Notes: a model not told the origin generated them from the sequence alone. 64,000 bases of DNA from Candidatus Polarisedimenticolaceae bacterium (GCA_035649595.1 DASRJG010000187.1:808-64807), one strand, 5' to 3'. Positions 20,292-31,164 are shown, counted from the stretch's first letter. Made by a program: numbers and translations.

Positions 20292-21191
20292 TCAGAGCAG
20301 CCGGCGGCCTCCCGCCAACGCCTCGAACATCCGCTCCATGAGGGCGGCGACCTCCGCGCGCGTCAGCTTCGCGCCCGGCGCCGAGGACTCGATCCGCGCC
20401 AAGCTCGCGCGCGCGAGCACGGCCGGAGATCCCGTGAAGGCGACGAACCCGTCCGGCGCACCGGCGTCCTGCAGGATGCGGACGTACGCGGCGGCGACCT
20501 CGAGGTCGCGGCGCGCCAGCGCGAAGACGCGAGCGCGATCGACCGTCCGCGGGAGGTACACCCGACCTTCGGTCGCGTCCGAGTCGCTGTCCTTGAGGAT
20601 GTTGACCAGCTGCAGCGCCTCGCCGAAGAACCGTGACCGCCTTCGGAGGCGCGCCGCCTGGGGGGCGAGCGCCGCGGCATCGAGCAGGAACAGCTCGGTG
20701 AGCATCTCGCCGACGATTCCGGCCACGGCATAGCAGTAGTCGCGCAGCTCCCGGAGCGACCGCAGCCTCAGGTTCCCGCGCTCGTCCCCGAGGCGGACGA
20801 ACGCGCCCATCCCCATGACGGTGCGGGACAGGTCGCGCCGGATCGCCTCCCGTGCGGGCTCGGGGATCGACCAGTACGCCTCCATCACGCCCGGGGTCTC
20901 CCGGAGGAGCTCGAGATAGCCGGCGTGGGAGACCGGCGGATCCTCGAGCCATCGCCGGGCGATCTCGACCTCCGCCCCGCGCGCGGCGAGGAGCCGGGCG
21001 AAGGCGTCGAGCCCCTCGAGGCGGCGATCGCGCGGCCAGCGCACGGCGTCCTCGAGCGTGTCCGCGATGCGGAAGAGAAGGTAGGCGAGGCCGACGTGGC
21101 GCCGCGTCGGCTCCGGCAGCATCGGAATGGAGACCGCGAAGGTCCGGCTGGTCTTCTCCAGGAGGTCGTCGAGGTTCGCCATCACTCTCAC
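20292..21191 (-). CDS. sqs: squalene synthase (farnesyl-diphosphate farnesyltransferase, eukaryote-like SQS type)
   Basis: 299-aa ORF. Start is GTG 21191 (GTGA overlap with the ipk stop) or ATG 21182. SRTFAVSIPMLP, LFRIADTLED, YCYAVAGIVGEML, ALQLVNILKDSDSDATEGRVYLP. Confidence 0.85.
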   Translation of the reverse strand: MRVMANLDDLLEKTSRTFAVSIPMLPEPTRRHVGLAYLLFRIADTLEDAVRWPRDRRLEGLDAFARLLAARGAEVEIARRWLEDPPVSHAGYLELLRETPGVMEAYWSIPEPAREAIRRDLSRTVMGMGAFVRLGDERGNLRLRSLRELRDYCYAVAGIVGEMLTELFLLDAAALAPQAARLRRRSRFFGEALQLVNILKDSDSDATEGRVYLPRTVDRARVFALARRDLEVAAAYVRILQDAGAPDGFVAFTGSPAVLARASLARIESSAPGAKLTRAEVAALMERMFEALAGGRRLL

Positions 21192-21997
21192 CGAGTGTCC
21201 ACCCGAGTTCCTTCCGGCGCCCGCCCCCGGATCGCGGCTGCGAAAGCCCCCGGCCTGCGTCCGTCGACGATCGACGATGCGATCCCGCGACCGGCGAGCC
21301 GCGCGGCCGCCGCCAGGCGGAGCGCCATGCCCCCCGTCACGTCGACGCCGGCGGCCCCGCGGACGCGACGGGCGGCGCGCGCGGCCTCCGCGGCCGACAG
21401 CCGGGGTATGGTCGCTCCGCGATCGTCCAGCACTCCCCGGGTGATCCCGAGCCAGACCGCCCCGCGCACGTCGATGCGCCGCCGCGCGAGCGATTCCGCC
21501 AAGACCAGGAAGAGAGCCTCGGTGGAGACGATGGTCGCGCCGCGCGCGGAGTCGAGGACGACGTCCCCGTACACGACGGGGAGGAACCCCTGGGCCAGCG
21601 CCTCGACGAGCGGCGGATCGAAGATTCCCGTCACGCGGCCGTTCCGGGCGCGCAGGAAGCTCGAGGGCGCGAGGGAGAACGGGCGCGCGCCGGCCGCCTC
21701 CAGGGCGCCGACGACGAGCCGGTGTAGCTCCCCCGCGCGGTGCTGCGTGCGGGAGACCGCATCGCGGCGCCGCCGCGCGGGCGCTCCCGACGCCAATCCG
21801 CCTTCCGCCGCGGCGACGTGCCCGAACGAGCCGCTGCCGTGGCCGACGAGGAGCCGCGGGCCGCTCGTGCGCCCGGACGCCTCGGCGATCGCCTCGGCGA
21901 GCCGCCGCAGGGTCGCGCCGCGTGCGGCCGCGTTCCGCGTCTTGTCGGTGATCAGGCTCCCTCCCAGCTTCACCAGGATCACCGGGCGCGCGCTCAA
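21188..21997 (-). CDS. ipk: isopentenyl phosphate kinase
   Basis: Tail of ORF 21188..23800(-) from TTG 21997 (TTGA overlap with the upstream stop; alternative GTG 21982). Amino-acid-kinase fold VILVKLGGSLITDK and GHGSGSFGH. Confidence 0.85.
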   Translation of the reverse strand: MSARPVILVKLGGSLITDKTRNAAARGATLRRLAEAIAEASGRTSGPRLLVGHGSGSFGHVAAAEGGLASGAPARRRRDAVSRTQHRAGELHRLVVGALEAAGARPFSLAPSSFLRARNGRVTGIFDPPLVEALAQGFLPVVYGDVVLDSARGATIVSTEALFLVLAESLARRRIDVRGAVWLGITRGVLDDRGATIPRLSAAEAARAARRVRGAAGVDVTGGMALRLAAAARLAGRGIASSIVDGRRPGAFAAAIRGRAPEGTRVDTR

Positions 21998-29048: not shown

Positions 29049-29076
29049 CGAGGGTCTCCAGGGGGCGAGGCGGCCG

Positions 29077-31164
29077 TCAGCCGCGCTCTCGCGCGTAGCT
29101 CGCCAGCGCGAGGAGTGGGAAATAGGTCGCATAGAGGTGATACCGGAGATAGAACACGCGCGGGAAGCCGGTCCCGGTCCACGCGGCGTCGTGCCAGGAC
29201 CCGTCCCCGTTCTGGGTGTCGAGCAGGTAGGCGACGCCGCGCGCCACCGCCCGGGACGACGCCTCGCCCGCGGCGAGCAGCGTCATGAGGGCCCAGGCGG
29301 TCTGCGACGCGGTGGACACCCCGTGTCCCTTCGTCGCGGGATCCTCGTAGGAGCGTTGTGACTCTCCCCAGCCGCCGTCCTCGTTCTGGACCGAGCGCAC
29401 CCAGGCGGCGGCCCGGCCGATCGCCGGGTGGCTCGCATCGACCGAGGTCCGCGTCAGCCCCCAGGCGGCGAGCCAGGTGCCGTAGAGATAGTTGGTCCCC
29501 CAGCGGCCGTACCAGGAGCCGTCGGTTTCCTGCTTCGCGAGCAAGAAACGCGCGGCGGCCGCGGTCGCCGGGTGGGACGGAGGGAGGCCGAGCTTCGCGA
29601 AGGTCTCCAGCGCGCGTCCGGTGATGTCCTCGCAACTCGGGTCGATCATCGCGTTGTGGTCCGCGAAGGGGACGTAGGTGAGCAGCTCCTTGTCGCAGCC
29701 GCGATCGAAGGCGCCGAAGCCTCCGTCGTCGTTCTGCATCGCGAGGAGCCAGTCGAGCCCCCGGTGGATCGCCGCGCGGCGCTTCCCTTCCTCTCGCGGC
29801 TGAGGGAAGGTCACGCCGGCGAGCGACGTGAGCACCTGCGCCGTGTCGTCGGTGTCGGGATAGAACGCGTTCCGGTACTCGAAGAACCATCCTCCGGGCT
29901 GGACTCCGGGAACTTTCGCGGCCCAGTCTCCCAGGCGCGTGGATTCCTTTCGCAGCAGCCATCGCGCCGCCTCGAGCATCCGCGGATCGCGGGGGTCCAC
30001 TCCGGAGGCGAGTAGGCAGTGCAGGGCGATCGACGTGTCCCAGACCGGCGAGAGACACGGTTGGAGCCGAGCCGTCTCTTCGTCCTCGATCACGAGGCGC
30101 CCGAGCGCCTCGAGCTGGGAGGCCACCGCGGGATGCTCGTCGGCATAGCCGAGGCTCTTGAGGGCGAGGATGGTGTTCACGATCGGCGGGAAGATCGCCC
30201 CCAGCCCGTCGGAATCCTCGAGCCTGCGCAAGATCCAGCGCTCTGCGGTCGCGAGCGCGCGCCGCCTGAGCGGGGTGATCCCGATCGCTTCCACGACGTT
30301 GAAGAATCCGGAGACCAGAACGAAGAAGATCCCCCAGAGCCAGGCCTTGAACGATTTCGCCTTGGGATTGACCGCGATGAGGGACGACGGTAGGCGCAGC
30401 CCAGGAACGTACAGCTCCGGGATCCCCCTGCCGTCCGGACAGGCCGCGCGGGGCTTCTTCGCCCAGACGATCGAGAGCGGGACCAGGATCGTGCGCGACC
30501 ACGCCGACATGTCCCCGATGTTGAACGGGAACCAGTGCGGGAGGAGCGACATCTCGGGGATGACGGCGGGACACCGCTTCCAGTCGTATTCCCCGAAGAT
30601 CGCGAGCAGGATCTTCGTGAACGAGTTGCAGGCTTCGATCCCGCCGTTCTCCAGAATCGCGCGCCGGGCCCGAGCCATCGGCTCTCCGTCGGCGTCGTCT
30701 CCGGCCAGCTTCAAGGCGAAGTACGCCTTGACCGAGCAACCGACGTCCACCGGCCCGCCGTCGTAGTTCGTCCAGCCTCCGGTCGGAAGCTGCTTGCGCC
30801 GGAGGTGCTCGCACGCCTTCGCCGCCTCCCGCGACGAACCGCGTTCGAGAGTGTGCAGGAGGAGGACGTATTCCGACTCGAGGATCGTGTCGCCTTCCAG
30901 CTCGGCGCACCAGTGACCGTCGGCGGCCTGAAGCTCGCGAAGGCGCTCCTGCGCCCGGCGGATCGATTCGGCGACCGGAGAGTCCGACGTCGGCACCGCG
31001 GGGAGCGAGTCGGGGACGGCCTCCGCCACCGAAAGGGCGACCGCGGCGGTCTCCCGGGCGACCGATCCGCGGCTCCTCCGCGAGGGAGACACCAACGCCC
31101 CCAAGCGCGCCGGCAACAGGCGCTCGACGTACCGTGCGAACTCGATCAGCTCTTCCCGGGCCAT
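29077..31164 (-). CDS. shc: squalene-hopene cyclase
   Basis: 695-aa ORF. DxDDTA motif (YPDTDDTAQV) and repeated QW motifs (QNEDGGWGE, QETDGSWYGRWG, QNGDGSW). Confidence 0.95.
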   Translation of the reverse strand: MAREELIEFARYVERLLPARLGALVSPSRRSRGSVARETAAVALSVAEAVPDSLPAVPTSDSPVAESIRRAQERLRELQAADGHWCAELEGDTILESEYVLLLHTLERGSSREAAKACEHLRRKQLPTGGWTNYDGGPVDVGCSVKAYFALKLAGDDADGEPMARARRAILENGGIEACNSFTKILLAIFGEYDWKRCPAVIPEMSLLPHWFPFNIGDMSAWSRTILVPLSIVWAKKPRAACPDGRGIPELYVPGLRLPSSLIAVNPKAKSFKAWLWGIFFVLVSGFFNVVEAIGITPLRRRALATAERWILRRLEDSDGLGAIFPPIVNTILALKSLGYADEHPAVASQLEALGRLVIEDEETARLQPCLSPVWDTSIALHCLLASGVDPRDPRMLEAARWLLRKESTRLGDWAAKVPGVQPGGWFFEYRNAFYPDTDDTAQVLTSLAGVTFPQPREEGKRRAAIHRGLDWLLAMQNDDGGFGAFDRGCDKELLTYVPFADHNAMIDPSCEDITGRALETFAKLGLPPSHPATAAAARFLLAKQETDGSWYGRWGTNYLYGTWLAAWGLTRTSVDASHPAIGRAAAWVRSVQNEDGGWGESQRSYEDPATKGHGVSTASQTAWALMTLLAAGEASSRAVARGVAYLLDTQNGDGSWHDAAWTGTGFPRVFYLRYHLYATYFPLLALASYARERG

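Follow-up and report, generated by a model that had tools for sequence, protein, structure and literature searches.

The window analyzed here, a 64,000-nt stretch of DNA (~70% G+C) from the soil acidobacterium Candidatus Polarisedimenticolaceae bacterium (GCA_035649595.1), carries on its minus strand ten co-directional genes that run, by open reading frame (ORF) and start-codon inspection, from 31164 to 20292 and join a hopanoid cassette (shc-hpnH-hpnA-hpnG) to genes of a mevalonate (MVA) route and a squalene synthase (SQS)-like gene (fni-hmgr-mvk-pmd-ipk-sqs). This block is likely to be a general-purpose MVA-to-squalene operon with a four-gene hopanoid cassette lying behind its promoter-like region. 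In the proposed arrangement, the core operon would work through mevalonate kinase (MVK), then phosphomevalonate decarboxylase (PMD) and then isopentenyl phosphate kinase (IPK), and the cassette would come first after the promoter-like region; a transcript arising in the AT-rich DNA upstream of shc would bring about joint expression of the steps from 3-hydroxy-3-methylglutaryl (HMG)-CoA to IPP (isopentenyl diphosphate) and DMAPP (dimethylallyl diphosphate) and from farnesyl diphosphate (FPP) to squalene, and the same transcript would add cyclization to hopene and the formation of adenosylhopane and then ribosylhopane. Acetoacetyl-CoA thiolase, HMG-CoA synthase and FPP synthase would be encoded outside the block, as an earlier note on this DNA had stated and as the window bears out: HMG-CoA synthase, thiolase, prenyl diphosphate synthase, HpnN and genes of the 2-C-methyl-D-erythritol 4-phosphate (MEP) pathway were found nowhere else in the 64 kb.

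Gene order in relatives supports this reading. HMG-CoA reductase (HMGR) was used as the query, with one genome per species, and the window proteins were mapped onto the 80 best loci; the recurrent unit proved to be a short-chain prenyl diphosphate synthase gene followed by fni-hmgr-mvk-pmd-ipk-sqs. The portion from fni to sqs is kept in about 60 of the 80 species-level genomes, adjacent hopanoid genes being absent from most; the prenyl synthase lies upstream of fni at 63 of the 80 loci, and sqs follows ipk at 47 of the 51 loci with sufficient downstream sequence. Hopanoid genes stand upstream of the unit at only 12 of the 80 loci (six labeled Gemmatimonadota, five labeled Acidobacteriota/Thermoanaerobaculia, one of these only as "uncultured bacterium," and one "Planctomycetota" metagenome-assembled genome [MAG]).

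Locus L084 (GCA_036275915.1), from the same family and with an SQS-like protein 73% identical to that of the window, carries all ten genes, separated by 8-9 nt or overlapping by 1-4 nt. At L085 and L086 (SQS-like proteins 76-77% identical), and likewise at L004 and L005, the aldehyde dehydrogenase gene is followed directly by fni-hmgr-mvk-pmd-ipk-sqs; L085 and L086 lack exactly shc-hpnH-hpnA-hpnG at an otherwise matching site, both share with the window the order M28-gluQ-small ORF-aldehyde dehydrogenase, and L086 retains the farther upstream synteny of the window (DUF1015, M28 peptidase, gluQ and a small ORF). Judged by these gene orders, the MVA genes are the constant and probably essential part of the block and the hopanoid genes the optional part. 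HMG-CoA synthase and thiolase genes were not found beside the cluster in L011 or L065, the two relatives with scanned upstream flanks. A correlation between the identity matrices of hopanoid and MVA proteins (rho ~0.7) was given no weight, as it does not distinguish linkage from common vertical inheritance.

The lineage itself offers further evidence. The class Polarisedimenticolia, to which the family belongs, is Mor1 in GTDB and subdivision 22 of the Acidobacteria, and the Mor1 genome, from an environmental acidobacterium of that subdivision (Sinninghe Damsté et al. 2017, Front Microbiol 8:968; PMC5462960), represents the same family-level lineage as the window. All seven MEP genes, dxs through ispH, were scored absent from it (PMC5462960). 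Because the MVA-sqs unit is conserved without hopanoid genes and Mor1 is without the MEP pathway, the MVA route is probably the only, housekeeping supply of IPP in this lineage. Where the cassette is present, it is a fair inference that hopanoid synthesis is regulated jointly with squalene synthesis and the bulk supply of isoprenoids.

Further observations were made at the surveyed loci. Four acidobacterial linked clusters (L050, L057, L074 and L081) share a conserved ORF of ~440-455 aa between hpnG and the prenyl synthase gene (e.g., L081:6337-7704), which has no Pfam or NCBIfam match and could be hopanoid- or isoprenoid-associated. Five other acidobacteriotal loci (L054, L061, L064, L070 and L071) carry an hpnG-like phosphorylase gene, 35-40% identical, directly upstream of fni, replacing the prenyl synthase, with neither shc nor hpnH close by; this gene may represent a cassette remnant or encode a nucleosidase of a different role. 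Finally, at L085:17046-17558, downstream of the MVA-sqs operon by ~6 kb, lies a gene of the EBP (emopamil-binding protein, sterol isomerase) Pfam family, which is unusual in bacteria.

Upstream region and transcription of the block

The genes of the block are closely packed. In the hopanoid part, shc and hpnH are separated by 28 nt, hpnH and hpnA by 16 nt and hpnG and fni by 2 nt, while hpnA and hpnG overlap in ATGA; the junctions of the MVA part are overlaps of ATGA (fni/hmgr and hmgr/mvk), TTGA (mvk/pmd and pmd/ipk) and GTGA (ipk/sqs). The junction list of the earlier note was thereby reproduced, with the qualification that the start positions of ipk and sqs are ambiguous: on three metagenome contigs whose HpnH is identical to that of the window and whose remaining cluster proteins are 99-100% identical, later starts are called for both ipk (GTG 21982, giving an 11-nt gap) and sqs (ATG 21182, giving a 5-nt gap), and the spacing is tight under both choices.

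The intergenic DNA that follows the aldehyde dehydrogenase gene is orthologous in the window and in L085 and L086; the gene after it is shc in the window and fni in the two relatives. Aligned elements common to the three comprise TGCGGCAGCATG(A/T)GT, an AT-rich box TTTATACA(G/A)AAT, and the start context ATGGnnCGGG. In the window, the box TTTATACAGAAT lies at 31175-31186 with a T8 run before it; it occurs once in the window and lies in one of only 6 AT-rich patches in the 64 kb, and in the scan of the 64 kb no such patch was found inside the ten-gene block. On the simplest reading of these alignments, one upstream control region would serve whichever gene comes first, with the hopanoid genes lying between that region and the MVA-sqs operon.

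In line with the earlier note, the block is tightly packed and probably co-transcribed as a single transcript: inside it there is no AT-rich patch, no excess of terminator-like sites and no sigma-70 match, and its tightness is also kept in L084, the relative at about 73% identity. Scans for internal promoters and terminators have low power in this phylum, and the terminator scan (8 sites against 4.8±2.5 expected) is not informative. We regard it as rather unlikely that the cluster is split among separate transcripts, such as shc-hpnH, hpnA-hpnG and fni-sqs, driven by promoters located within coding sequence. The gaps of 28 and 16 nt after shc and hpnH could hold weak signals, fni has its own upstream region in cassette-less relatives, and the scans would be poorly suited to detecting a promoter of this phylum; against this, the 2 nt between hpnG and fni in the window become a 4-nt overlap in L084, 4-nt overlaps occur at six or more junctions, and the sole conserved upstream element precedes shc. 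A weak hairpin with the T8 run before shc was considered as a terminator and rejected, as it folds no better than shuffles and the hairpin is not conserved in relatives.

The first codons of window shc (31140-31164) and of L086 fni (L086:4864-4895) share a 13-nt identity, AAGAGCTGATCGA, and window Shc and L086 Fni both begin M-A-x-x-(K/E)-E-L-I, which may be chance or a recombination scar of cassette movement. An origin of the first codons of shc (MAREELIE) from a duplicated fni 5' end was considered and rejected as unproven: L084 keeps the Shc N-terminal extension at the protein level, and fni has no counterpart to it past ~4 residues.

At the other end of the block, a 62-nt gap containing a Shine-Dalgarno sequence separates sqs from the DUF892 gene, which is followed after 7 nt by the cardiolipin synthase gene. 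No U-tailed hairpin was found in the 62-nt gap, and read-through from the block into these two genes is possible; neither gene was found beside the cluster in any other fetched locus. The next AT-rich patch downstream on the minus strand is at 17353-17379, and the co-directional run may exceed ten genes.

Predicted functions of the encoded proteins

Third-position GC content (GC3) is 0.89-0.96 in all ten frames, which were on this ground taken as coding. Family calls, made with NCBIfam curated cut-offs and Pfam profiles on the window proteins (Table 1), agreed with the ten gene identities proposed earlier, with HpnG, MVK and the SQS-like protein falling below the curated cut-offs; two labels were refined, the decarboxylase to the phosphomevalonate decarboxylase type and the squalene synthase to a divergent, compact SQS relative.

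Table 1. Genes and regions of the block and its immediate surroundings
Feature	Coordinates	Strand	Basis
Aldehyde dehydrogenase (P5C dehydrogenase-like, p5cdh); upstream synteny anchor, outside the pathway	31236-32885	-	Pfam Aldedh
p5cdh-shc intergenic region; candidate promoter/regulatory region of the whole block	31165-31235	-	AT-rich box, orthology
shc, squalene-hopene cyclase, 695 aa	29077-31164	-	TIGR01507, Pfam SQHop_cyclase_N/_C
hpnH, radical SAM adenosylhopane synthase, 333 aa	28047-29048	-	TIGR03470, Radical_SAM + DUF3463
hpnA, hopanoid-associated NAD-dependent epimerase/dehydratase family, 329 aa	27041-28030	-	TIGR03466
hpnG-like nucleoside phosphorylase, 239 aa	26325-27044	-	TIGR03468 best match, Pfam PNP_UDP_1
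fni, type 2 IPP isomerase (IDI-2), 342 aa	25294-26322	-	TIGR02151
hmgr, class I (NADPH) HMG-CoA reductase, 427 aa	24014-25297	-	TIGR00533, Pfam HMG-CoA_red
mvk, mevalonate kinase, 340 aa	22995-24017	-	TIGR00549, GHMP_kinases_N
pmd, phosphomevalonate decarboxylase-type GHMP decarboxylase, 334 aa	21994-22998	-	PDB relative 6n0x, residues
ipk, isopentenyl phosphate kinase, 269 aa (TTG 21997) or 264 aa (GTG 21982)	21188-21997	-	NF040647, AA_kinase
sqs, compact SQS_PSY enzyme, 299 aa (GTG 21191) or 296 aa (ATG 21182)	20292-21191	-	Pfam SQS_PSY
DUF892 ferritin-like protein	19708-20229	-	Pfam DUF892 on identical contigs
Cardiolipin synthase	18426-19700	-	Pfam PLDc_2 on identical contigs

Three of the four hopanoid proteins are clear members of their families. 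Shc scores 675.6 bits against its model (cut-off, 431), its translation shows the catalytic DTDDTA (the DxDD protonation motif), and its N-terminal extension of ~45 aa is kept in L084 and has a coding-like GC3; HpnH scores 369 bits (cut-off, 225) and contains CNLACIGC (CxxxCxxC), and HpnA scores 477 bits (cut-off, 368). HpnG reaches 124 bits with its best NCBIfam match, under the cut-off of 187, and is only 33-40% identical to the hpnG products of other linked clusters; its gene sits, as it does in other clusters, between hpnA and the gene that follows, and the protein putatively converts adenosylhopane to ribosylhopane. HpnC, HpnD and HpnE were not found in the window, which therefore lacks the HpnC/D/E form of squalene supply; the SQS-type enzyme stands in their place.

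The MVA genes point to a particular version of the route. Fni scores 377.6 bits (cut-off, 281), HMGR 444.9 bits (cut-off, 441.8; 375 bits with the Pfam model) and IPK 129.5 bits (cut-off, 120), while MVK, at 154 bits, is slightly under its cut-off of 163, this model being its best match by a wide margin (only 36 bits against the phosphomevalonate kinase model). The decarboxylase, labeled MVD-like in the earlier note, is above the NCBIfam cut-off for the MVD family, and its closest solved relative (240 bits, against 162 bits for the best diphosphomevalonate decarboxylase [DMD]) is 6n0x, the Anaerolinea thermophila phosphomevalonate decarboxylase, AthPMD (PMC9254496). In the alignment to PDB relatives, the window protein has YWGARD, in which the DMD lysine is absent, and QGH, in which the PMD histidine is present; wild-type AthPMD has YWGNRD and QGH, DMDs have YWGK.. 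and ..GM.., and the engineered 6n0z differs from 6n0x by N to K and H to M changes at exactly those two positions (PMC9254496, PMC11052028). By its residues, the enzyme is of the PMD type, and its substrate preference is predicted accordingly to be that of this type. Profile searches found no phosphomevalonate kinase in the cluster or elsewhere in the 64-kb window, and the presence of a PMD-type decarboxylase and IPK, with phosphomevalonate kinase not found in the 64 kb, indicates a mevalonate route of the haloarchaea/Chloroflexi type.

The last gene of the block encodes an SQS_PSY protein (118 bits with the Pfam model) that we read as a compact one-protein squalene synthase, an activity predicted from its sequence and modeled fold. 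A profile of its clade matches eukaryotic squalene synthases over positions 9-225 (E of 1e-22 to 1e-19) and CrtM/phytoene synthase (PSY) over a short stretch (E of ~1e-13 to 1e-11), and gives no match to HpnC; scores of the window protein against the HpnC and HpnD models are 52-58 bits (cut-offs, 250-279). Its AlphaFold (AF2) model (pLDDT 93.5, pTM 0.91) retrieves with Foldseek, as the best 41 PDB matches, squalene synthases only (TMq 0.66-0.80; CrtM, 0.52-0.60). The two Asp-rich motifs, DTLED and D198xxxD202, are invariant across the clade; homologues of the protein in metagenomes number >4,000. C-terminal FxxFxxxP and K..R elements are presumably comparable with the F288 and KIRK regions of human SQS. 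Because the curated family score was missed, the protein is best said to work like a squalene synthase, and not to be a proven member of that family.

It is improbable, in our view, that this protein makes dehydrosqualene, presqualene diphosphate or another head-to-head product, with squalene coming from HpnCDE encoded elsewhere. Such an activity would fit its score of 84 bits against TIGR01559 (cut-off, 287), its length, ~40-60 aa below that of known SQS, the linkage of its gene to the MVA operon even where shc is not adjacent, and the fact that no characterized clade member was found in the literature searched. Both profile and fold, however, rank CrtM, PSY and HpnC far below true squalene synthases, many clade members are labeled farnesyl-diphosphate farnesyltransferase by JGI, and Mor1 has shc and lacks hpnC/D/E (PMC5462960). 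In genomes without an adjacent shc, the squalene made by the predicted squalene synthase may go to a cyclase whose gene lies elsewhere, or may have other uses.

Optional cassette or dedicated pathway

The earlier note had proposed an MVA pathway dedicated to hopanoids, and this is not supported. That an extra MVA pathway, dedicated to and co-regulated with hopanoid production, runs beside a housekeeping MEP pathway is highly improbable: the hopanoid and MVA genes are physically fused, with overlapping stop and start codons, and dedicated MVA clusters do exist in actinomycetes, those of Streptomyces flanking meroterpenoid gene clusters, but most relatives, including same-synteny ones that lack just the four hopanoid genes, keep the MVA-sqs unit with no hopanoid genes beside it, the variable part is the cassette and not the MVA genes, and the Mor1 genome, from the same family, has no MEP genes.

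Several points weigh against the picture of a general-purpose operon with an optional cassette: (i) the absence of MEP genes from the present genome is presumed from another genome of the family, which is itself a MAG; (ii) the sigma-70 scan gave no match anywhere in the region, and its consensus may not fit Acidobacteriota; (iii) the cassette event may have been an insertion or a deletion; (iv) cassette-less relatives may carry shc elsewhere, which is compatible with the model; and (v) the activities of the SQS-like protein, HpnG and MVK are assigned by best match and context, because all three score under the curated cut-offs.

A broader scenario may well hold, and we stop just short of favoring it: the cassette would have been repeatedly gained or lost from an ancient (pps)-fni-hmgr-mvk-pmd-ipk-(hpnN)-sqs operon, where pps stands for the prenyl synthase gene, of Acidobacteriota (Polarisedimenticolia and Thermoanaerobaculia), Gemmatimonadota and some planctomycete-labeled MAGs, with the haloarchaea-type MVA route as the sole IPP pathway, the ~296-aa enzyme as a new type of one-protein squalene synthase, and squalene as the default end product.

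Away from the block, the window holds a glyoxylate shunt pair, isocitrate lyase (46311-47567) and malate synthase (47549-48847), whose ORF calls overlap by 19 nt, and, divergent from it, a gene for an HTH/IrrE/ScfR-type regulator (49323-50765), with an AT-rich patch at 49231-49256 in between. A radical SAM + DUF3641 protein (59998-60993, plus strand; by eye of the arsenosugar ArsS type) is encoded after a small 110-aa ORF (by eye carboxymuconolactone-decarboxylase-like) in the region 59657-60993. Two plus-strand ORFs, 42569-44158 (529 aa) and 51123-52475 (450 aa; by eye outer-membrane porin-like), have good coding statistics and no Pfam match at E<=1e-6. Rfam and tRNA scans of the window gave no matches.

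Relation to known systems

Canonical hpn clusters sometimes contain precursor-supply genes, which are then genes of the MEP pathway (dxs/ispG/ispH) or ispA. Those of Zymomonas, Rhodopseudomonas palustris, Streptomyces and the subdivision 1 (SD1) Acidobacteria resemble the window in having shc together with hpnH, hpnG (hpnG-like in the window) and hpnA in one neighborhood, and differ from it in using HpnC/D/E for squalene, where the window has one SQS-type enzyme alongside five genes of the MVA route. A co-located supply gene is also on record within the Acidobacteria, in "cluster B" (ispA-shc-hpnH; PMC5462960). The clusters of Gemmatimonadota MAGs (e.g., L053, L051, L063 and L066) are, like the window, co-directional and tight, with shc-hpnH-hpnG...fni-hmgr-mvk-pmd-ipk...sqs, and their full order, shc-hpnH-hpnG-pps-fni-hmgr-mvk-pmd-ipk-hpnN-sqs, is fuller than that of the window, with two further genes, one for a short-chain prenyl diphosphate synthase ahead of fni and one, placed between ipk and sqs, for an HpnN transporter (894.7 bits; cut-off, 751.85); they are without hpnA.

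With the haloarchaea-type pathway, known from Haloferax and, in the Chloroflexi, Roseiflexus and Anaerolinea, the window has in common a predicted MVK, a PMD-type enzyme with the histidine present and the lysine absent, and IPK. That pathway has been described for haloarchaea and "some Chloroflexi" (PMC9254496); unlike there, it occurs here in Acidobacteriota and in relatives labeled Gemmatimonadota or Planctomycetota, and is fused to sqs and hopanoid genes.

These results matter in several respects: (i) surveys keyed on hpnCDE, MEP genes or canonical hpnG may miss or mis-score the hopanoid potential of uncultured Acidobacteriota and Gemmatimonadota; (ii) the known bacterial range of the PMD/IPK mevalonate route is widened past the Chloroflexi; (iii) the compact squalene synthase clade could serve pathway engineering; and (iv) the presence or absence of the cassette at one fixed site in close relatives is a natural experiment on the role of hopanoids in soil and sediment bacteria. 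Modest additions to what is known are the wider distribution of the arrangement, its PMD/IPK route, the clade of compact squalene synthases and the polymorphism of the cassette.

The closest precedent is Mor1, for which shc, hpnH, an SQS-like gene in place of hpnCDE, IDI-2, HMGR, MVK and MVD were reported and whose hopanoids were concluded to be made "in a completely different way" from those of other Acidobacteria (PMC5462960). The MVA genes are color-coded in the gene-location figure of that paper, and from the legend of Figure 7 and the text we infer the exact adjacency of hopanoid and MVA genes in Mor1. IPK and the PMD-type decarboxylase went unrecognized there and hpnG was scored absent, and operon structure, cassette polymorphism and occurrence outside the Acidobacteria were not discussed (PMC5462960). 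The hopanoid-MVA linkage is not mentioned by Santana-Molina et al. (2020), and no description of it was found in the literature on the mevalonate pathway or IPK in Thermoanaerobaculia, Gemmatimonadetes and Acidobacteria. The earlier note had allowed that the fused arrangement might prove common and already catalogued, and this is partly so, with the linkage in 12 of the 80 relatives and the Mor1 case reported in 2017.

To conclude, the essentials are already on record for Mor1, minus the analysis of the operon, IPK and PMD. The block in the window is a further member of the arrangement reported for that genome, unusual when set against textbook hpn clusters, and not a new kind of system.

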